This document shows, one piece after another, positions 4,821 through 56,784 of a DNA stretch of 56,784 bases. This stretch comes from Candidatus Zapsychrus exili. Lineage in GTDB: Bacteria; Omnitrophota; Gorgyraeia; Zapsychrales; Zapsychraceae. How positions within the stretch are numbered: position 1 is the first letter of the stretch; each line of letters starts with the position of its first letter. The stretch is taken from positions 1-56,784 of the forward strand of contig JAVCCJ010000020.1 in assembly GCA_030765585.1 (NCBI GenBank). The letters run 5' to 3'. Under the pieces are notes generated by a model. That model did no database searches and was not told where the DNA came from. It worked only from the letters and a program-made list of their open reading frames with translations. Both the position numbers and the translations under genes were made by a program.

Positions 4821-4958
4821 ATGAAAAAGAATTTAAAGACACCAACTAACATTAAAGGCAAAAGAGTTCATGGTTTTCGTAAAAGAATGGAAACTTCAAG
4901 TGGACAAGATGTCTTAAAAAGAAGGCGTGCCAAAGGCCGCGCAAAGCTTACTAAATAA
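4821..4958 (+). CDS. rpmH: 50S ribosomal protein L34 (not in ORF track)
   Basis: [45 protein letters not shown]. Confidence 0.97.
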
Positions 4959-5085: not shown

Positions 5086-6699
5086 ATGGAAAAGAGATTA
5101 TTTTTAGCAATTATTTTGTCTGTTGCAATTTTGTATGTTTGGTCTGCAATGAACCCCAGACAGCAAGTAATTCAACCTCAAACCAATGTATCACAAGTTG
5201 TTGGTGTGCAAGAGGATATAGCTCTTGCTCCCTCCCCTTTTGTTAATTCACAAGAACCAGTTAAAGTACAGTCTAGTATTGCTCCTGTCGTTGAGAAAAT
5301 ATATATACTTGAAGCTAGTAAGCTTTTGGTAGAATTTTCTAATATTGGAGGCAAGCCTACAAAAGTGTTGATAAAAGATTATGACACAACTTTACCTATT
5401 AAGGATATCAATGGTTTGTCTGGGTATGAAAATGTTGAGTTTGCCGTAAGAGCCTCATCTGGCAATAAGATAGAATATGAATATAAGGACGATTTGATAG
5501 AGGTAATTAAATCGTATGAAATATTTGAAGATGAATATACTGTTAGGGCTAATGTTACTATAGAAAAACTTTCGGATATGTCCAATCTGAACGATATTGC
5601 AATCAATGCCTTTTCTTTGGATATGTCCAATCTGACCAGCAAGAAGCAAGACATCTCATCGTCTAGAGATAAATCTTTGTTTGAGTACATTGTTACTACT
5701 GACCAAGGTATATTTAGGAAGGCAAAAGCTTTTAAGTTCTCTGAAAAAGACAACAAGCAAGAGCAAGTGCAGGTTAATTGGTTTGGCTTTAGAAATAGAT
5801 ATTTTTGCGCGCTATTTCATCCTGAATATGTATCTTCTGGATATACTATAGAGAGCAAAGGTGACAAGACGTTACAATTGAGCCTATCATCTACTGGCGA
5901 TAACAGACAAAGAGTAGAGTTGGCTTCAACAATATATATTGGCCCTGAGAAATTGGATATATTAAAAGAATATGGCTTGGGCTTTGAGAAGATTAGAAGA
6001 TATTATAAGTTAGGACTTTTTGACTCTATTGCAAAGGTTATTAATACTGTTATAGCATTGTTGCATAAAATTGTTCCAAATTGGGGAATTTGTATCATAT
6101 TAGTTAGTTTTATTATATATTTTTCAATGTATCCGCTTACTATTAGAAGTTTGTCTTCTATGAAGAAAATGCAAGCTCTACAGCCAAAAATAAATGCTTT
6201 AAAGGAAAAACATAAGAATAGTCCTCAAAAAATGAATAAAGAAACAATGGAATTATATAAAGAGTATAAAATAAATCCATTGGGAGGATGCTTGCCAATG
6301 TTATTGCAAATGCCAGTTTTCATTGGTCTATATCAAGTTTTATGGAGATCAGTGTCTTTTAAGGGGGCGCATTTTCTATGGATTAAAGATTTATCACAAC
6401 CGGACAGATTGTTTATTTTGCCGTATAGTTTGCCTATTATTGGTAACGAAATCAATATCTTACCTTTATTAATGATGGTTGTTATGTTTTTTCAGCAGAA
6501 ATTTTCAACAAAGAATATGGCAACTACAGATCCAAGCCAGGCAGCACAGCAAAAAATGATGGCAACAATATTTCCTATATTTTTAGGTTTTATATTTTAT
6601 AAGTTTGCAAGTGGATTGGCGCTTTATTTTACCATGTTTTATTTGCTTTCTACATATACCCAGTGGAAGATGTCCAAAGATACAAAGGTTATTGCTTAA
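5086..6699 (+). CDS. yidC: Membrane protein insertase YidC
   Basis: N-terminal TM, periplasmic domain, NPLGGCLPMLLQMPVF, FLWIKDLS. Confidence 0.97.
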   Translation: MEKRLFLAIILSVAILYVWSAMNPRQQVIQPQTNVSQVVGVQEDIALAPSPFVNSQEPVKVQSSIAPVVEKIYILEASKLLVEFSNIGGKPTKVLIKDYDTTLPIKDINGLSGYENVEFAVRASSGNKIEYEYKDDLIEVIKSYEIFEDEYTVRANVTIEKLSDMSNLNDIAINAFSLDMSNLTSKKQDISSSRDKSLFEYIVTTDQGIFRKAKAFKFSEKDNKQEQVQVNWFGFRNRYFCALFHPEYVSSGYTIESKGDKTLQLSLSSTGDNRQRVELASTIYIGPEKLDILKEYGLGFEKIRRYYKLGLFDSIAKVINTVIALLHKIVPNWGICIILVSFIIYFSMYPLTIRSLSSMKKMQALQPKINALKEKHKNSPQKMNKETMELYKEYKINPLGGCLPMLLQMPVFIGLYQVLWRSVSFKGAHFLWIKDLSQPDRLFILPYSLPIIGNEINILPLLMMVVMFFQQKFSTKNMATTDPSQAAQQKMMATIFPIFLGFIFYKFASGLALYFTMFYLLSTYTQWKMSKDTKVIA

Positions 6700-48117: not shown

Positions 48118-50454
48118 ATGATAGATATACATCCAAACAACTTTAAACGTATTAGCCTCCAAATTGAGGGACAAGTACAGGGCGTGGGCTTTCGTCCATT
48201 TATTTATAACTTAGCGAAAGAGCTTAAGCTGCACGGTTGGGTTTTAAATTCGTCAGCAGGTATTGTAATAGAAGCCGAAGGGATGTTGCATAAAATAGAA
48301 GAGTTTTTGATTAGAATAAAACAAGACAAGCCAGTTAATTCAAAAATACATAGTTTTAAATATGTTTATCTTGATGTTGCCGGATACAAAGATTTTAAAA
48401 TAGATACATCTAATAGCTCAGAGGCAAAAACAACAATAATTTTACCAGACATCGCAACTTGCCCTGAATGCCAAGAAGAGTTTTTTAATCCAGACAATCG
48501 TCGCTATCTTTATCCGTTCACTAATTGTACACACTGCGGTCCACGTTATTCTATAATTGAGGTGCTTCCCTATGATAGGTCAAACACGTCGATGAAAATT
48601 TTTAAGATGTGTCAGGAGTGCGAGCAAGAATATGACGATCCTACAAACCGACGCTTCCATGCTCAGCCAAATGCTTGTAATAAATGTGGACCACAAATAG
48701 TACTCTGGAATAAAAAAGGAGAAGTCTTAAGTTCTAAAGCCCAAGCAATTAATGATACCGTTTCAGCTATTAATGAAGGCAAGATTGTCGCTGTTAAAGG
48801 TTTAGGTGGATTTCATTTGGTTGTTGGTGCAGAAAATATAGACGCAATCTTTCTTTTAAGAGAACGAAAGAACAGAGAAGAGAAACCATTTGCATTGATG
48901 TATCCAAACATAGATTTGATAAAACAAGATTGTTTTGTTTCTAGAAAAGAAGAAGAACTTTTGCTTTCTGTCGAGGCAACAATAGTTATTTTAAAGAAAA
49001 AAGATAATGCCGCATCTAAAGAAGTAGTTGCTCCAAACAATCCTTATTTAGGCATAATGTTGCCGTATACTCCGCTACATCATATTTTACTTAAAAGTTT
49101 AAACAAACCGATTGTTGCGACAAGCGCTAATCTTGCAGATGAGCCAATTTGTATTGATGAACATGAAGCTTTAGCTCGATTAGAAAATATAGCTGATTTA
49201 TTTTTAGTTCATAACAGAACAATCGTTCATCACGCAGATGATTCGATTGTGCGTGTTGTCGCCGCTCGCCCACTTGTTTTAAGACGTGCTCGCGGGTACG
49301 CTCCTTTAGGAATTCACTTAAAGACTAAAGTAGATACAGTGCTCGCCGTAGGTCCACATTTAAAAAATACAGTAGCATTAGCAGTTTCAGATAACGTTTT
49401 TATAAGCCAGCATTTAGGCGATCTTGAAACAAAGCAGTCGCTTGATGTTTTTAAGAAAACGATAAATGATTTAACAACACTTTATGAAGCGACCCCAACA
49501 AAGATAGCGCATGACGCACACCCTGAGTATTTATCAACTAAGGAGGCGCTAAAGGATGATTGGTCTGATAAGATTCTTGCCTTCGCAGGAATGACAGTAA
49601 AAAAAGTAGCTGTTCAGCATCATCATGCGCACATTGTCTCTTGTATGTCAGAAAATCACGTCGACGATACTGTGCTTGGTATTTCTTTTGACGGCACAGG
49701 TTTTGGCCCAGATGAAACTATTTGGGGAGGAGAGTTTTTGATATCGACTTTAAGCGACTTTAAGCGCGTAGGTCATATTAAAACTTTTGTTTTACCTGGT
49801 GGCGAGACTGCAATTAAAGAACCAAGGCGTTCTGCCTTAGGATTGCTTTATTCTATTTTTGAAAAAGACGCTTTTGATTTGACCAATACTAAAACTTTAC
49901 AGGCTTTTAGCAAAGAAGAGTTAGATAATATTAAAATAGCTTTCGAAAAAAAAATAAATTCGCCTGTTACATCAAGTGCGGGACGTTTGTTTGATGCGGT
50001 TGCATCAATAGTTGGTTTAAGGCAAGTTATTCGTTATGAAGGTCAGGCTGCAATGGAGTTGGAATACGTTTTAAATGAAACTGAAATAGGGCAATATGAC
50101 TTTTCAATTATAAAAGAAAACGATACTTTTGTTATAGATTTTGATCAAATGATTAAAGGAATTATAGAGGACGTAGACGCAAAAGTAGGCGTTGACATTA
50201 TCTCTATCAAGTTTCATAATACGCTAATTAATTCTGCTGTCGAGGTAGCGAAGTCCGTCCCTGACTGGGGGCTGTCTCAAAAGACAAAGAAGGTTGTTTT
50301 AAGCGGCGGCTGTTTTCAGAATAAATATTTAACAGAGAATTTAATTGATAAGTTGCAATCAGAAGGTTTCCAAGTTTATTGGCATCAAAGTGTTCCACCA
50401 AATGATGGCGGAATTTCACTTGGTCAAGCCATCGTTGCTGCGCAACGTAAGTAA
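48118..50454 (+). CDS. hypF: Carbamoyltransferase HypF
   Basis: GQVQGVGFRPF, two zinc fingers, RRFHAQP, KGLGGFHL, QHHHAH, LSGGCFQN, NDGGISLGQ. Confidence 0.97.
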   Translation: MIDIHPNNFKRISLQIEGQVQGVGFRPFIYNLAKELKLHGWVLNSSAGIVIEAEGMLHKIEEFLIRIKQDKPVNSKIHSFKYVYLDVAGYKDFKIDTSNSSEAKTTIILPDIATCPECQEEFFNPDNRRYLYPFTNCTHCGPRYSIIEVLPYDRSNTSMKIFKMCQECEQEYDDPTNRRFHAQPNACNKCGPQIVLWNKKGEVLSSKAQAINDTVSAINEGKIVAVKGLGGFHLVVGAENIDAIFLLRERKNREEKPFALMYPNIDLIKQDCFVSRKEEELLLSVEATIVILKKKDNAASKEVVAPNNPYLGIMLPYTPLHHILLKSLNKPIVATSANLADEPICIDEHEALARLENIADLFLVHNRTIVHHADDSIVRVVAARPLVLRRARGYAPLGIHLKTKVDTVLAVGPHLKNTVALAVSDNVFISQHLGDLETKQSLDVFKKTINDLTTLYEATPTKIAHDAHPEYLSTKEALKDDWSDKILAFAGMTVKKVAVQHHHAHIVSCMSENHVDDTVLGISFDGTGFGPDETIWGGEFLISTLSDFKRVGHIKTFVLPGGETAIKEPRRSALGLLYSIFEKDAFDLTNTKTLQAFSKEELDNIKIAFEKKINSPVTSSAGRLFDAVASIVGLRQVIRYEGQAAMELEYVLNETEIGQYDFSIIKENDTFVIDFDQMIKGIIEDVDAKVGVDIISIKFHNTLINSAVEVAKSVPDWGLSQKTKKVVLSGGCFQNKYLTENLIDKLQSEGFQVYWHQSVPPNDGGISLGQAIVAAQRK
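49572..49596 (-). repeat. REP-like palindrome arm embedded in frame within hypF
   Basis: GATTCTTGCCTTCGCAGGAATGACA; reverse complement matches intergenic 56020-56044 at 23/25. Confidence 0.7.
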
Positions 50455-50474
50455 AAAGGCAAAAGGTAAACTTT

Positions 50475-50546
50475 TGTCATTGCGAGCATAAGCGAAGCAA
50501 TCTCTTAAATAGATTGCCGCGTCGCCTACGGCTCCTCGCAATGACA
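50475..50546. repeat. Complete GTCATTGCGAG...CTCGCAATGAC palindromic element (RPE/REP-like)
   Basis: 12-bp terminal inverted repeat TGTCATTGCGAG/CTCGCAATGACA with inner GCAATCT/AGATTGC; its right half recurs at 51941, 53416 and inverted at 56513-56548. Confidence 0.85.
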
Positions 50547-50581
50547 GCTTAATTTTTACCTTTAAAACGGAGTTTTAAATT

Positions 50582-50839
50582 ATGTGTTTAGCAGTTCCAG
50601 GAAAAACAATTAGTATAGATAAAACATCTACAGATGAGCATATGGGCTCTATTGAATTTGGAGTCGCTGTTAAAGAGATATCATTGTCTTTAGTTCCAGA
50701 GGCAAAAATAGGCGATTATGTGCTTGTTCACGCTGGCTTTGCTATCAGCATTGTCGACGAGGATGAGGCTTTACAAATATTTGAAGATATAAAAAAGATA
50801 GATGAGCTAGAGGACGATAAACAAATAGAGCTTCCATGA
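50582..50839 (+). CDS. hypC: Hydrogenase chaperone HypC
   Basis: [18 protein letters not shown]. Confidence 0.97.
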
Positions 50840-51918
50840 AATATTTAGATGAATATAGAGATCCTGTATTGGCTCGTAAAATAGCTGATCAGATAAAGAA
50901 GATTACAACTAAACCTCACGTGATAATGGAAGTTTGTGGTGGACAAACTCATTCAATTGTTCGCTATGGCATTGATCAAATTTTACCAAAAGAAATAGAA
51001 CTTGTTCATGGCCCAGGTTGTCCGGTTTGTGTCACATCTTTAGAGCTAATAGATAAAGCGATAGATATATCACTAAGAGATAATGTAATATTTACTTCCT
51101 TTGGAGATATGTTGCGTGTGCCAGGATCTAAAAAAGACCTGTTTTCTGCCAAGGCAGAGGGAGCTGATGTAAGAATTGTTTATTCTCCGCTTGATGCTTT
51201 AAAAATAGCTAAAGAAAATCCTCAAAGCCAAGTGGTATTTTTTGCTGTTGGTTTTGAAACAACCGCTCCTGCAAATGCAATGGCAGTATTTTTAGCTAAG
51301 AAACAAAATGTAAGCAATTTTTCTATTCTTGCCTCGCATGTTCTGGTTCCGCCTGCAATGGAAGCAATTTTATCGTCTGAAAACAATAGAGTAGAAGGTT
51401 TTTTAGCCGCAGGTCATGTTTGTACGATAATGGGATATCGGCAGTATCACAAAATTGCAGAAAAATATAAAGTGCCGATTGTTGTAACAGGTTTTGAACC
51501 ACTTGATTTATTAGAAGGTATTTATTTGTGTATCAAGCAAATGGAGGAAGGAATCTATAAGGTAGAAAACGAATATGTTCGTTCGGTTAAAGCAGATGGT
51601 AATGTAAAAGCGCAGGAAATTATAAATGATGTATTTGAGGTTTTCACAAGAAAGTGGCGAGGCATAGGTGCGATTGATGATAGCGGGCTTAAGATAAAAA
51701 AAAAATACGAGGCGTTTGATGCTGATATAAAGTTTGGTTTAACTGAATATACTGTCGATGAAAATCTTGAATGTATTAGCGGGCTTATTTTACAAGGGAT
51801 TAAAAAGCCAGCCGAATGTTCGGCATACGGCACAAAATGTACGCCAGAGCATCCGTTAGGTGCGACGATGGTATCATCCGAAGGTGCTTGCGCAGCATAT
51901 TATAGGTATAGAAAGTAG
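50836..51918 (+). CDS. hypD: Hydrogenase formation protein HypD
   Basis: [39 protein letters not shown]. Confidence 0.97.
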
Positions 51919-51932
51919 AGAGCAGAAAGTAG

Positions 51933-52314
51933 AAAGTGATGAGATTGCCGCGTCGCTTCTCGCAATGACGATGTGTTGTTTTGGATGTTAAACGCTGTTG
52001 TAAGGTTTTTGTATTATTTAATAGTTTGGCAAGCAAGTTAGATGTTCCATACGCACCGTTGTTTGAAGTCTCGCTTTAATGCGAGACGAGTTCAGTGCGG
52101 TGTTAAGCCAAAATATTAAATAATTCTTTAAAACCTGAATAGGCAAAGTTTTTTGCCTACTTTTTTTAAAAAAGTAGGTGGTGTGTCCCTGCCCGCAAAG
52201 GGACGTGGTCCCAACGGGACTTTACGTGCCACACAGGGACAATGTGAAGCGTTAATGCTTCAAAGCACAAAGGTAAAGCGCTTGGCGCTTTGAGGTGAAG
52301 CGGTCGCCGTTTCA
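51933..52314 (-). repeat. Modular non-coding repeat, copy A
   Basis: 51986-52150 matches 53474-53638 at 159/165 with no gaps; same module order as copies B and C. Confidence 0.9.
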
Positions 52315-52323
52315 AATATTATT

Positions 52324-53373
52324 ATGAATAAAAACTTTAACATAACTTGTCCTATCCCAATTAGCGATTATCCTCGTGTGCTTTTAGCTCATGGTTCAGG
52401 AGGTAAATTGATGCAAAGGCTGATTGATGAGATGTTTATAAAGACATTTGGTTCAAATGACGTGCAGCACGATGCGACAACTTTGTCTGTGGGGTCTGAC
52501 TTCACTAAGATAGCTTTTACTACAGATTCTTATGTGGTTAATCCTTTATTTTTTCCTGGCGGCGACATTGGTTCTTTGGCGGTATATGGTACGGTAAATG
52601 ATTTGGCAGTAAGCGGTGCGCGTGCAAAATATTTGAGCGTTGGGTTTATTTTAGAAGAAGGTTTAGAGATGGAAACCCTTTGGCGCATTGTTCAATCAAT
52701 GAAGGCAGCAGCAGATAAGTGTGATGTCAAAATTGTTACAGGAGATACAAAGGTAGTTGATCGTGGCAAGGGTGATGGAATTTTTATAAACACATCAGGT
52801 ATTGGATTTATAGGACAAGAGACTCAATTAAACGCAAAACAAATTAAGTCAGGCGATGTTGTCATTGTTAATGGTGATATAGGTCGTCATGGAGTTGCTA
52901 TTATGGCGCAAAGAGAAGGTCTGAAATTAGAGAGCGAAATAGAATCTGATGCAGCGCCTGTAGGGAATTTAGTTTTTAAGCTTTTAGACGCTGGTATTAA
53001 AGTGAATTGTATGCGTGATTTAACTCGTGGTGGACTTGCCAGTGCACTAAACGAGCTTGCCGAAAGTGCACAATTAGCAATAGCAATTGACGAAAATAAA
53101 CTTGTTGTACGTGATGATGTTCGCGGTATTTGTGAAATATTAGGGCTTGATCCTACATATGTTGCCTGTGAAGGCAGATTTGTGTGTTTTGTTGATCCTA
53201 AAGATGCTGACATCGCACTTAAAATAATGCAAGCTGACTTTAATGGCAAAAATGCAAGCATTATAGGTGAGGTAAAAACTGATAAAGAGGCTATTGTTAC
53301 GATAAAAAGCTTAATCGGCACCGAACGTATATTAGATATGATAGTAGGGCAACAACTTCCAAGGATTTGTTAG
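52324..53373 (+). CDS. hypE: Carbamoyl dehydratase HypE
   Basis: AHGSGG, TTDSYVV, GTVNDLA, TGDTKVV, RDLTRGG, C-terminal PRIC. Confidence 0.97.
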   Translation: MNKNFNITCPIPISDYPRVLLAHGSGGKLMQRLIDEMFIKTFGSNDVQHDATTLSVGSDFTKIAFTTDSYVVNPLFFPGGDIGSLAVYGTVNDLAVSGARAKYLSVGFILEEGLEMETLWRIVQSMKAAADKCDVKIVTGDTKVVDRGKGDGIFINTSGIGFIGQETQLNAKQIKSGDVVIVNGDIGRHGVAIMAQREGLKLESEIESDAAPVGNLVFKLLDAGIKVNCMRDLTRGGLASALNELAESAQLAIAIDENKLVVRDDVRGICEILGLDPTYVACEGRFVCFVDPKDADIALKIMQADFNGKNASIIGEVKTDKEAIVTIKSLIGTERILDMIVGQQLPRIC

Positions 53374-53380
53374 TCTGCGG

Positions 53381-53720
53381 AAGGTAAAAGGCAAAAAGTA
53401 AAAGGTAAAAGTGATGAGATTGCCGCGTCGCTTCGCTCCTCGCAATGACAGTGCAGTGTTTTTGTTTTGTTGCTGTTAAACGCCGTTGTAAGGTTTTTGT
53501 ATTATTTAATAGTTTGGCAAGCAAGTTAGATGTTCCATACGCACTGCTGTTTAAAGTCTCGCTTTAATGCGAGACGAGTTCAGTGCGGTGTTAAGCCAAA
53601 GTATTAAATAATTCTTTAAAACCTGAGTAGGCAAAGTTCTTTGGTCACTTTCTTTCAAGAAAGCGACAAGAAGTTGAAGCGTTAACGCTTCAAAGTACAA
53701 TATGAAACGCTAGGCGTTTC
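53381..53720 (-). repeat. Modular non-coding repeat, copy B
   Basis: Direct repeat of copy A; 53628-53701 is the exact reverse complement of 56281-56354. Confidence 0.9.
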
Positions 53721-53848
53721 CCCTCTCAATCTTTCTACTGATAGACATTGAAATCATTTTCATTTTTTGCTATAACAAGATAGCACTTCCACCCAAGTTA
53801 ATACTACTAATCTTAATTTTAATTTAATCTTATAAGAAAGCAGATACT

Positions 53849-55930
53849 ATGTCAGAGAATGTCCCCAATACACAAAGAACATTAGAAGGTTTTTTTAATC
53901 CAAACGGAATCGCTGTAATAGGCGCATCATCTAAAAAAGAAAAAATTGGTTATCAAATTTTAAGCAATTTGATCGTCGGTGGATTTGAAGGAGATTTATA
54001 TCCTATCAATCCAAAAGATGATGAAATTATGGGTAAAAAGGCTTATAAATCTGTGCTAGATGTCGAAGGCCCAATAGATCTTGCAGTAATTACAATTCCT
54101 GCGCCATTAGTTTTACCTGCAATGGAAGAATGCGGTAAAAAAGGAGTTAAGAATTTAGCCATAATTACATCTGGTTTTGGGGAAGTCGGAAATAAAGAAG
54201 ATGAGCAAAAGTTAGTAGATATGGCAAAGAAATATAATATGGCATTTTTAGGGCCAAATATTTTAGGTCTTTTATATATGCCTTCAAAAATAAACGCAAG
54301 TTTTGGCCCAGAAGAAAACAAGACAGGCAAGATTGCATTTATCTCACAAAGTGGTGCGTTGGCTATCGCTCTTATGGGTTGGACTAAAATGGAAAAAATT
54401 GGTCTGGCATCCCTTTGCAGTTTAGGTAATAAAGCTGATGTTGACGAAAAAGAGCTTATTGAGTATTTCAATGAAGATGATAATGTAGATGTTATTTTGA
54501 TTTATATGGAAGGACTGACAGACGGTCGTAAATTCCTTCAAACCAAAGTAAAGAAACCCGTAATTGTGCTTAAAGTTGGTCGCTCTTCTCGAGGAGCAAA
54601 GGCAGCTGCATCGCATACAGGCTCATTGTCAGGCTCTGATGGTATTTTTAATGCGGTATTTAAACAATTAGGTATGCTTCGCGCTGATTCATTTACAGAC
54701 GCATTTAGCTGGGCACGCGCTTTTGGACTACCGCTTCCAAAGGGGGACGATGCTATTATTATTACAAATGGTGGTGGTATTGGAGTATCAGCTACCGACG
54801 AATGTGAATTTAAAGATATAAAGCTTCTAGAAGATCCAGAATATTTAGAAGAAAAGTTTAGAAGCACAATGCCTTCTTTTGGTAGTACTAAAAATCCAAT
54901 TGATATTACAGGTGGTGCAGGTGTCGAAGGATATCGTGCCGCTGTAAAAGTTGCGCTTGCTGAAGAAAGAATGCATGCATTGTTTGTTCTCTATTGTGAG
55001 ACAGCGGTAACAGACCCATTGGACATTGCAAAAGCAATTACAGAAGAATATGAGGCAGCAGGTTGTAATAAACCAGTTTTTGCTGCAATGGTTGGTGGAG
55101 AACGCTCAAGGACGGCACTTCATTATTTAAGTGAAAAAAATATACCAGCTTTTGATTCGGTAAATCAGGCAGTTTCTGCACTTAAAATTTTATATAAATG
55201 GAAAAAGATTAAAGCCCAAGAGCGTGAAGTAGCAGAACAAGTTGATGCCCCACAAGAGGCAAAAGATATTATTGAAAAAATAAGAGCAGAGGGTAGAAGC
55301 TTTTTGCTTGAGCATGAAGCACGCAAGGTGTTAGAGATTTGTGGTGTTCCAATGCCAAGTGGTGGTTTTGCAGCAAGCGCTGATGAAGCCGTTGCTCTTG
55401 CAAATGCACAAGATATGTATCCAATTGCAATGAAGGTTGCATCAGTTGACATCATCCATAAGACAGATGTTGGCGGAGTTGTATTAAATATTAAAACAGA
55501 GAAAGAATTACGCGAAAAATATAATGTAATGATTGAACATATTGCAGAAGTTGTACCTGAAGCGAAAGTACTTGGCGTTAATCTAGTTAAGATGACCAAG
55601 GGAATTGAGTGTATTGTTGGTTTAAGTCAAGATCCGCAGTTTGGACCTGTCGTTATGTTTGGTCTTGGCGGTGTTTTGGTTGAAGCATTAAAAGATGTGT
55701 CTTTTCGTGTTGTGCCTTTTGGTCCAATTGAAGCAAAACGTTTGATAGAAGATATAAAAACAAAGAAAATCTTAGATGACTTTAGAGGAATGAAGGCGCA
55801 TAAAGAATCTATCATTCAGACCCTTTGCGCTGTTCAGAAATTAGCCCTGTATGTTAAAGAAATAGATGTTAATCCGTTGATTACAAATGAAGAAGGAAGT
55901 TTTGCGGTTGATGCGCGCATCATTATATGA
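53849..55930 (+). CDS. ADP-forming acetate/acyl-CoA ligase (alpha-beta fusion)
   Basis: IAVIGAS CoA-binding domain, SQSGA, GNKADV, AASHTGSL (phospho-His), ITNGGG, HKTDVGGV, DPQFGPVVMFGLGG, EIDVNPL..VDARI. Confidence 0.92.
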   Translation: MSENVPNTQRTLEGFFNPNGIAVIGASSKKEKIGYQILSNLIVGGFEGDLYPINPKDDEIMGKKAYKSVLDVEGPIDLAVITIPAPLVLPAMEECGKKGVKNLAIITSGFGEVGNKEDEQKLVDMAKKYNMAFLGPNILGLLYMPSKINASFGPEENKTGKIAFISQSGALAIALMGWTKMEKIGLASLCSLGNKADVDEKELIEYFNEDDNVDVILIYMEGLTDGRKFLQTKVKKPVIVLKVGRSSRGAKAAASHTGSLSGSDGIFNAVFKQLGMLRADSFTDAFSWARAFGLPLPKGDDAIIITNGGGIGVSATDECEFKDIKLLEDPEYLEEKFRSTMPSFGSTKNPIDITGGAGVEGYRAAVKVALAEERMHALFVLYCETAVTDPLDIAKAITEEYEAAGCNKPVFAAMVGGERSRTALHYLSEKNIPAFDSVNQAVSALKILYKWKKIKAQEREVAEQVDAPQEAKDIIEKIRAEGRSFLLEHEARKVLEICGVPMPSGGFAASADEAVALANAQDMYPIAMKVASVDIIHKTDVGGVVLNIKTEKELREKYNVMIEHIAEVVPEAKVLGVNLVKMTKGIECIVGLSQDPQFGPVVMFGLGGVLVEALKDVSFRVVPFGPIEAKRLIEDIKTKKILDDFRGMKAHKESIIQTLCAVQKLALYVKEIDVNPLITNEEGSFAVDARIII

Positions 55931-55932
55931 TG

Positions 55933-55968
55933 TAAGGTAAAAGGTAAAAGGTAAAAGGCAAAGGGTAG
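55933..55968 (+). repeat. AAAGGYA heptamer tandem tract
   Basis: TAAGGTAAAAGGTAAAAGGTAAAAGGCAAAGGGTAG; similar tracts at 50452-50470, 53381-53411 and inverted at 56554-56583. Confidence 0.75.
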
Positions 55969-56019
55969 TGAAAGAATAAGTTTTGTCGACGACAAGATAG
56001 TGGTTATTATAAAGAATTT

Positions 56020-56045
56020 TGTCATTCCTGCGCAGGCAGGAATCC
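56020..56045 (+). repeat. REP-like palindrome arm GTCATTCCTGCGCAGGCAGGAATCC
   Basis: Hairpin ATTCCTGC-GCAG-GCAGGAAT with GTC lead. Confidence 0.75.
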
Positions 56046-56091
56046 CTTATAAGGCTTATATAAGATGATAATTTGGCATTAAAAAATAAAC

Positions 56092-56120
56092 TTGTAATAT
56101 TTTAGTTTCTTTGGTATTAT
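56092..56120 (+). promoter_or_regulatory. Sigma70-type promoter of candidate sRNA
   Basis: TTGTAA-17 nt-TATTAT with TG extension. Confidence 0.55.
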
Positions 56121-56126
56121 TTGTAT

Positions 56127-56223
56127 GGTTGTTTTGACAAGCAGTTTACGTCCTTCCTCCGTTCCGCTGATCAACAGTGGGATGTTATTATAGAAAGGCC
56201 TCGCTTACGGCGGGGTCTTTTTT
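56127..56223 (+). ncRNA. Candidate small RNA with anti-Shine-Dalgarno motif
   Basis: Promoter, hairpin, unpaired TCCTTCCTCC (56151-56160), hairpin, intrinsic terminator; no credible ORF. Confidence 0.55.
56194..56223 (+). terminator. Intrinsic terminator
   Basis: AAAGGCCTCGC-TTACG-GCGGGGTCTTT followed by T-run. Confidence 0.8.
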
Positions 56224-56280
56224 ATTTATCTTTTTTATTTTTCTAGGAATGAAATTGTTTGCTAGAGAATGACTTAGGGG

Positions 56281-56583
56281 ATTGTACTTTGAAGCGTTAA
56301 CGCTTCAACTTCTTGTCGCTTTCTTGAAAGAAAGTGACCAAAGAACTTTGCCTAAGAAAATTCTAAAGTAAGATTCATACATCTCGCTTAACGCTGCATT
56401 AAACTCGTCTCGTATTAAAGCGAGACTTCAAACAGTAATGCTGATATGGTATCTGCTTGCTTGATGTACAAATCATACTAAAATTTTCTAACGGCCTTAA
56501 AAACAACATATTGTCATTGCGAACGAGTTAAGCGAGTGTGGCAATCTCATTACTTTTTCCTTTTGCCGTTTACCTTTCGCCTT
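56281..56583 (+). repeat. Modular non-coding repeat, copy C (inverted relative to A and B)
   Basis: Same modules in reverse order: GAAGCGTTAACGCTTC, GTCGCTTTC..GAAAGTGAC, AAACTCG-hairpin-TTCAAACAG, GTCATTGCGA..GCAATCTC, heptamer tract. Confidence 0.88.
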
Positions 56584-56727
56584 ATTTTTTTGGCTGCTTC
56601 AATAAATTTCATTTGCCATTACTAGTATTTGTATTAAAATATAATCTTAATAAGTCTTACCGCAATTCTGCAGTAAATTATGCGCAGCAACAACGCGCTT
56701 CTTATATGGTAATTACTAAAGGAACAT

Positions 56728-56784
56728 ATGAAAAAGCTTCTCTTAATAATTTTCATTTTATTTCTATCTACAACATCTTATGCA
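56728..56784 (+). CDS. N-terminus of a secreted protein (runs off the window)
   Basis: AAGGA RBS; MKKLLLIIFILFLSTTSYA signal peptide. Confidence 0.7.
   Translation, partial: MKKLLLIIFILFLSTTSYA

Follow-up and report, generated by a model that had tools for sequence, protein, structure and literature searches.

A genome-restricted long-hairpin repeat within a mosaic of intergenic hairpin modules at the hypD-hypE region of Candidatus Zapsychrus exili

What is the structured repeat that recurs around the hypD and hypE genes of the omnitrophotan Candidatus Zapsychrus exili, and is it a family of noncoding RNAs or a mobile element? The stretch analyzed here, called the window, is the 56,784 nucleotides (nt) of contig JAVCCJ010000020.1 (C77; C labels denote contigs of this assembly) of GCA_030765585.1, an assembly of 2.04 Mb in 129 contigs with 34% G+C and 96% completeness. 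An earlier note, made from the letters alone, had described three copies, A, B, and C, of one ~300-nt modular element with a covarying fold and a defined functional strand, either a non-autonomous mobile element or a multicopy noncoding RNA. We find that each copy is a mosaic of several independent hairpin-forming intergenic repeat families around a lineage-specific core, and that the core is probably a non-autonomous, selfish hairpin repeat akin to miniature inverted-repeat transposable elements (MITEs) and REPINs, lying inside a mosaic like those of bacterial interspersed mosaic elements (BIMEs) and BOX repeats.

The core is 165 to 170 nt long, spans CAAARAACTTTGCCTA to AACGGCGTTTAACA, and is present in seven copies on four contigs; copies A, B, and C are thus real but are not the full set. 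In BLAST comparisons A and B are 88.2% identical over 254 nt (E 8e-89), B and C are 75.8% identical over 326 nt (E 9e-56), and A and C are 69.7% identical over 257 nt (E 5e-21). The cores form two subtypes, with 87.8 to 96.4% identity within a subtype and 68.3 to 72.6% between them. The nearest BLAST relatives of the window copies lie on other contigs (C125:4018-4205 for copy A, at 95.4% over 219 nt, and the C22 copy for copy C, at 92.4% over 185 nt), and the window copies are therefore not a local duplication; with seven cores dispersed over four contigs, the explanation that there are only three copies made by such a duplication falls away. By our reading of the flanking open reading frames (ORFs), four core copies are co-oriented with them and three are anti-oriented, and the adjoining genes are ordinary or without a family assignment, judged from ORFs and Pfam. 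The core copies are as follows.

51986..52155, - strand: core of copy A, subtype 2, a long imperfect palindrome with apex P2/P3 at 52053-52098
53474..53643, - strand: core of copy B, subtype 2, apex at 53541-53586
56339..56503, + strand: core of copy C, subtype 1, apex at 56396-56441
C22:4828-5012: core copy outside the window
C125:1231-1425: core copy outside the window
C125:4018-4205: core copy outside the window
C19:27409-27495: core copy outside the window, 5'-truncated

Decayed forms accompany these copies. At C53:29590-29730 the left modules are fused to the right end, the center having been lost between CAAAAAC direct repeats, and the right end stands alone at C22:12003-12050 and C19:36436-36493.

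Among the genomes and collections searched, the core is restricted to this genome. DNA searches of 40 relatives gave no match, a covariance model of the apex found none in 44 other genomes of the family, pattern searches did not find the core in the genome_contigs and viral_contigs collections, and there was no match in plasmid or phage collections. The sole covariance-model match among 150 genomes of the order is a poor one (G029, E 0.005), with P2 unpaired and P3 truncated, and we judge it to be due to chance. The three metagenome contigs that match reproduce contigs of this genome at 99.8% identity or more. No named RNA family could be assigned either, as had been anticipated: an Rfam 15 cmscan of window positions 50000-56784, with E values up to 1, reports nothing inside the copies, and its sole match is FtrB at 55994-56101 (28.8 bits versus a gathering score of 66), outside A, B, and C. 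Judged by title, the literature listed for GTCATTGCGAG or for Omnitrophota hairpin repeats does not describe the core.

Copy A occupies the 405-nt gap between hypD and hypE. These genes are adjacent in 11 relatives, where the gap is about 12 to 250 nt and contains no such element; the gap here is therefore a lineage-specific enlargement, and the operon does not need the element. The motif AAACTCGTC, seemingly common to hairpins of the relatives (L037 and L042), occurs 15 times in the genome, roughly the chance number by our estimate, and was rejected. As for empty sites, position 56240 is joined to 56618 in one contig of metagenome run X1, which thereby omits 377 nt, all of copy C among them, and may represent an empty allele, although we judge it too weak to use, with a 25-nt side and unknown letters between.

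Around the core, all of the motifs on which the earlier description rested are found where they had been placed: the GAAGCGTTAACGCTTC palindrome, a hairpin followed by CAAAGAACTTTGCCTA, the AACTCG-hairpin-TTCAAACA apex enclosed by GCAYTR/YARTGC, the GTCATTGCGA..GCAATCTC arm, and the heptamer tract. They do not constitute one ~300-nt element, as the modules also occur alone and in other orders and combinations, in the manner of BIMEs and BOX repeats, and independent dispersal is seen for the GTCCC and GTCATTGCGA..GCAATC hairpins as well as for the palindromes and the heptamer tracts. Pattern counts in the whole genome, compared with one shuffled genome, are 59 versus 0 for the GTCATTGCG..GCAATC hairpin, 39 versus 0 for the GTCATTC[CT]..GGAATC hairpin, 44 versus 2 for GTCCC..GGGAC hairpins, and 38 versus 8 for short RAARCG..CGYTTY palindromes (both strands counted). 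The proximal hairpin, described earlier as re-written between copies, is an exchangeable module with variants that have re-assorted relative to the core subtypes; preceding the core, the T-run/A-run hairpin occurs as CCTAC, GTCGC, or GTCC variants in combinations that cross those subtypes. Segments are exchanged as well, and 53628-53701 of copy B is identical to 56281-56354 of copy C at 74 of 74 bases, beside cores that are only 70.7% identical.

The repeat background appears active, which favors a selfish core. The 37-nt unit CACGTAAAGTCCCGTTGGGACCACGTCCCTTTACGGG, nested in the GTCCC hairpin of copy A, recurs on seven other contigs (C16:2745, C19:37669, C22:8917, C24:21042, C51:162, C85:43049, and C108:2496-2606, with three tandem copies in C108), always at the same ..GG^CAGG.. 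point and in the loops of different hairpin types, including NTS-like GTCATTCC hairpins. It looks like a very small loop-targeting insertion.

In the window, copies A and B lie on the same strand, within or just past the apparent hyp gene run, B being directly downstream of hypE; copy C is ~350 nt beyond the acyl-CoA synthetase-like gene, in the opposite orientation. The genes and the modules other than the cores are listed in order along the window.

48118-50454: ORF upstream of HypD (ORF list)
50446..50471, + strand: heptamer tract of AAAGGYA-like units, directly past the stop codon of ORF 48118-50454
50476-50504, + strand, and 50512-50545, - strand: inverted pair of GTCATTGCGAG..GCAATC hairpins, module M7a
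50836-51918: HypD (ORF and Pfam)
51919..51940, + strand: copy A weak heptamer-like tract, directly past the hypD stop codon
51941..51969, - strand: copy A M7a hairpin GTCATTGCGAGAAGCGACGCGGCAATCTC, one of the 59 genome-wide matches (0 in the shuffled genome)
52156..52178, unstranded: copy A T-run/A-run hairpin, module M3, CCTAC variant
52178..52240, - strand: copy A GTCCC..GGGAC-CCAC hairpin, module M2, with the nested 37-nt unit at 52192-52228
52246-52261, 52275-52291, and 52297-52313, unstranded: copy A, three short palindromes, module M1, the third stopping 10 nt upstream of the hypE start codon
52324-53373: HypE-type AIRS protein (ORF and Pfam)
53380..53414, + strand: copy B heptamer tract (AAAGGTA)n, after the hypE stop codon
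53416..53449, - strand: copy B M7a hairpin
53644-53667, unstranded: copy B M3 hairpin, GTCGC variant
53676-53691 and 53704-53720, unstranded: copy B M1 palindromes
53849-55930: ADP-forming acyl-CoA synthetase-like protein (ORF and Pfam)
55933..55967, + strand: heptamer tract after the acyl-CoA synthetase-like stop codon, 83% complementary to 56555-56584
56021..56044, + strand: GTCATTCCTGCGCAGGCAGGAATC hairpin, module M7b, close to the Neisseria NTS consensus
56291-56306, + strand: copy C M1 palindrome
56315-56338, + strand: copy C M3 hairpin, GTCGC variant
56513..56548, + strand: copy C M7a hairpin
56555..56584, - strand: copy C heptamer tract, read as its complement

Strict (AAAGGTA)n tracts number 17 in the genome; several follow immediately on stop codons, and some form inverted pairs. 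Because most units carry TAA and the period is 7, three units suffice to put a stop codon in every frame. Downstream of hypD and of hypE, the same gene junctions of relatives carry other heptamer-repeat hairpins (GCGAGTT/AACTCGN in L037 and YAAGAAN in L038). Following ORF 48118-50454, the gap at 50446-50575 seems to form a single large hairpin composed of the heptamer tract, two inverted GTCATTGCG hairpins, and a short complementary TTTACCTTT. Two further observations concern transcription signals. The palindrome module of copy B (53674-53701) reads TTGAAG-16-TACAAT on the + strand, ~150 nt before the acyl-CoA synthetase-like start, and promoter-like sites are no commoner than in shuffles. Just upstream of copy C, a promoter-like TTGGCA-16-TAATAT lies ~90 nt ahead of a strong terminator-like hairpin (56192-56222), with TCCTTCCTCC between, and 56073-56222 may specify a small transcript.

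RNAalifold, applied to the six full copies, pairs the flanks of the apex with each other, so that the core is one long imperfect hairpin of ~150 nt; the earlier model had the apex and its enclosing helix right but missed this pairing. The apex, with P2 of 6 bp and P3 of 7 bp, sits on a three-way junction reached through stems S1 (3 bp), S2 (7 bp), and S3/S4 (12 bp), and reads GCAYTR-AACTC-GTCTCGC-ATTAAA-GCGAGAC-TTYAAACAR-YARTGC. The internal loops of the apex are invariant, and between subtypes there is hardly any change in P3 or in either internal loop. A first model of our own, with closing helix TTAACGCCG/CGGCGTTTAA, is mismatched in several copies, and RNAalifold substitutes stems S1 to S4 for it. 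Over 35 pairs (210 cells), 96.7% are paired, versus 34 to 41% with the partners slid, and nine pairs show double, compensatory changes, versus zero to two with the partners slid. Two of the compensatory pairs belong to the GCAYTR/YARTGC helix, in agreement with the covariation originally reported there. All nine separate subtype 1 from subtype 2 and therefore reflect one evolutionary split rather than many independent events. Folds of single copies are equally good on the two strands, with z-scores of -4.73 and -6.12 on the strand that had been proposed as functional, which we call the C-plus strand and which is the minus strand of A and B, and of -5.77 and -5.66 on the opposite strand; the consensus energy is -36.2 kcal/mol on the opposite strand versus -26.6 kcal/mol on C-plus.

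Intrastrand pairing is thus maintained, but a single functional strand is not indicated. Across the 35 pairs, C-plus has 4 G-U cells and 7 A-C cells, and the latter are G-U on the opposite strand; with shared states counted once, by our count, the comparison is about 4 versus 5 events. The three stem mismatches said to become G-U on C-plus do exist as cells in P2/P3, and the GTCGC..GTGAC hairpin contributes one further G-T pair, but the proposed strand bias does not hold across the whole core. The apex alone has 3 G-U and no A-C cells on C-plus, and in the outer stems the bias is reversed. The apex bias is suggestive and cannot be significant. All 11 departures from pairing are transition-type, and neutral transitions in a duplex palindrome would yield the observed G-U/A-C pattern.

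Compensatory changes are common in mobile REPIN hairpins, according to Bertels and Rainey (2011; PMC3116915), and therefore do not by themselves indicate an RNA gene. Such changes, together with a few G-U pairs in a handful of palindromic selfish repeats, can mimic a structured-RNA gene. Small ORFs in the core, with frames of 8 to 25 codons, are not kept between subtypes, as we infer from the sequences. Promoter-like sites (19 versus 19.4 expected from shuffles) and terminator-like sites (10 versus 4.5 expected) have no consistent placement relative to the core.

Three other explanations of the core were weighed against a selfish repeat. A host-selected cis element of mRNA, co-transcribed with adjacent genes as a long hairpin acting in either orientation as a processing site, stability barrier, or decoupler, for example between hypD and hypE, would suit the location of A and B on one strand in or just after the apparent hyp gene run, the stable fold of the read-through strand of copy A (-50.9 kcal/mol, z -5.66), and the 4:3 split of orientations, which a palindrome that works both ways would tolerate; BOX, RUP, and SPRITE are likewise thought to act structurally on co-transcribed genes (PMC3049150). 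The 11 relatives whose adjacent hypD and hypE lack such an element, and the persistence of truncated and center-deleted copies, speak against it, and we consider this explanation unlikely. The core could instead be a multicopy structured noncoding RNA family, or a single-stranded DNA (ssDNA) signal, formed from the C-plus strand with the apex as a protein-binding head. The near invariance of P3 and the internal loops, the compensation of the diverged stems, and the apex G-U count are in keeping with this, as are the changes 56413 T>C and 56425 A>G in a strain variant of copy C, which, in our reading of P3, mend one G-U and create another on the same strand. This alternative is confronted by the seven A-C cells on C-plus from the reversed outer stems, the lower folding energy of the opposite strand, the number and scatter of promoter-like sites, and the lack of an Rfam match or of a credible match in the other genomes searched, and the three or four events are insufficient for significance; it seems to us quite unlikely.

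The remaining alternative is a neutral palindrome that moved between hairpin-rich intergenic regions through recombination or gene conversion rather than transposition, and in which arm-to-arm template switching at replication would yield "compensatory" changes without selection. It accounts for the exchanged segment shared by copies B and C, for the copy with a slippage-like deletion between the 7-nt direct repeats on either side of the hairpin, and for the transition-type character of every pairing departure, but the bulges and asymmetric apex are kept in both subtypes and have not been homogenized to a perfect palindrome, and the copies sit at unrelated loci on four contigs. We regard it as very unlikely. 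A selfish repeat gives the best fit to copies that are dispersed in both orientations, leave decay products, exchange segments, are confined to a single genome, and have inserted into a conserved gene pair. Of the two options first offered, the non-autonomous mobile element is accordingly the better, with its copies on four contigs, both orientations, and fragments, and a multicopy noncoding RNA is less favored.

Several results weigh against a selfish repeat. No autonomous partner with the arms of the core was found. The window contains no cognate enzyme, as had been noted, and the assembly has three Y1 genes like those of REP-associated tyrosine transposases (RAYTs) and one IS110 gene; the palindromes flanking the three Y1_Tnp loci are different ones, with no BLAST match to the core. 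No match to a reverse transcriptase, to DDE_Tnp_1, or to the TnpB zinc-ribbon (PF07282) was found in the 96% complete assembly, and no core copy encloses an ORF in BLAST searches of A, B, and C against it, absence being unproven given that completeness. The single IS110 locus, considered as a source of a bridge RNA, is without core motifs, bar two single matches among seven motifs, and was rejected as a partner. The two arms of the core are inverted repeats along their entire extent. The ends of the composite have no significant inverted repeat: in a test of four copies, two further copies being without the left anchor, shuffles reach the observed score in 201 to 870 of 1,000 cases. No target-site duplication or clean ends could be defined, and the sole flanking direct repeat seen, CAAAAAC, borders the internal deletion in C53 and not an insertion. 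No filled-versus-empty polymorphism was seen beyond the weak joint across copy C, and no metagenome contig bridges an empty A or B site. Invariant apex loops and covarying stems are also expected of a functional RNA, and seven copies in two subtypes afford little statistical power. Because clean ends, a target duplication, and a parent element are not demonstrable, we liken the core to REPINs and MITEs and do not file it as a member of either.

As a non-autonomous selfish repeat, the core would have spread to at least five loci and would recombine with neighboring hairpin modules, and its pairing would be kept because the hairpin, as ssDNA or as read-through RNA, is handled by a trans-acting enzyme or by the replication machinery. 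The copies and modules, the pairing with its compensatory changes, the confinement to this genome, and the lineage-specific widening of the hypD-hypE gap are shown, and from them we infer mobility and a single-stranded intermediate, as well as any influence on the transcript of the hyp genes. There is an outside chance that the invariant apex on its three-way junction is a strand-specific recognition head for a trans-acting protein, in which case the core would be a new, asymmetric kind of REPIN-like element that depends on one of the genome's RAYT-like or GIY-YIG enzymes, or else a true multicopy noncoding RNA of this Omnitrophota lineage. If the apex is such a head, it would offer a small, tractable substrate for the study of hairpin-repeat recognition and movement.

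The M7 hairpins that adjoin the core have a far wider distribution. The 24-mer GTCATTGCGAGGAGCGAAGCGACG, the first 24 bases of the M7a hairpin of copy B (53416-53449), is found unchanged in at least 120 loci from many phyla, with record titles that include Bradyrhizobium, sphingomonads, Oscillospiraceae, Bacteroidales, Planctomycetota, Nitrospiraceae, a Daviesbacteria record, and an Omnitrophica record. Other salt-lake metagenome runs show a sharp-edged excess of cover over exactly 53414-53451, with many and differing flanks. A GIY-YIG frame lies within 400 nt in 3 of 80 loci carrying the 24-mer in other genomes (L055-L134). This genome has ~9 small GIY-YIG loci, one of which (C22:13355-13681) is bracketed by inverted GTCATTCC hairpins; that gene has a heptamer tract upstream, and its left GTCATTCC hairpin is read into its N terminus. 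The GTCATTGCG hairpin was tried as an indicator of strand and rejected: of 52 distinct copies, 43 fold better on the GTCATT strand, but G-U pairs are equal (20 versus 19) and base composition is uncontrolled. Separately, the Y1 gene on C33 lies between two copies of the palindrome AAAGGTACCTGCTTCTTTTTT..AAAAGAAGCAGGTACCTTT (4859-4901 and 5645-5687), which occurs only three times in the assembly. A repeat on both sides of a Y1 gene is the usual REP-RAYT arrangement.

How does this system compare with those already known? ERIC/IRU, Correia elements, and the BIMEs of E. coli are imperfect palindromes of ~100 to 170 bp or mosaics of palindromic units that lie in transcribed intergenic regions in either orientation. 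The core is likened to them by description only, with no sequence relation seen, and unlike Correia elements its composite has no demonstrable target duplications or inverted ends. Pneumococcal BOX is modular, with a boxA-boxB-boxC organization. According to Croucher et al. (2011; PMC3049150), BOX, RUP, and SPRITE are likewise modular intergenic repeats with extensive secondary structure, confined to one species group, judged parasitic and slow-moving, and thought to affect co-transcribed genes through structure. Our repeats differ from them in being of unrelated sequence and from another phylum, and in that the modules are separate families with very different copy numbers, one of them extending across many phyla.

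REPINs, described by Bertels and Rainey (2011; PMC3116915) as doublets of repetitive extragenic palindromes (REPs) that form hairpins and are mobilized by RAYT transposases, share with the core a long intergenic hairpin of ~100 to 150 nt in multiple copies, conserved blocks, compensating paired parts, defunct remnants, and higher-order clusters. The core departs from them in that its arms are not REP-type mini-palindromes, its head is an asymmetric three-way junction, there are only seven copies, and none of the three Y1 genes here is flanked by core sequence. The Ssn nucleases, finally, are GIY-YIG enzymes that act on one ssDNA strand only, as reported by Chenal et al. (2025; PMC11893778); the hairpin at 56021-56044 nearly matches the NTS consensus CGTCATTCCCGCGMAVGCGGGAATCYRG given there, and the degenerate SRM search sequence from the same source has 5 matches in the genome versus 0 to 2 in shuffles. 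That published motif, as given there, fits 3 of the 39 GTCATTC[CT] hairpins and none of the 59 of the GTCATTGCGAG/GTCATTGCG form found in A, B, and C. The likeness to NTS/SRM is confined to the GTCATT..AATC modules, and the core itself has no resemblance to them. Our finding adds a lineage-specific family of long hairpins in the Omnitrophota, adjoining NTS-like hairpins whose partner nucleases were not described until 2025.

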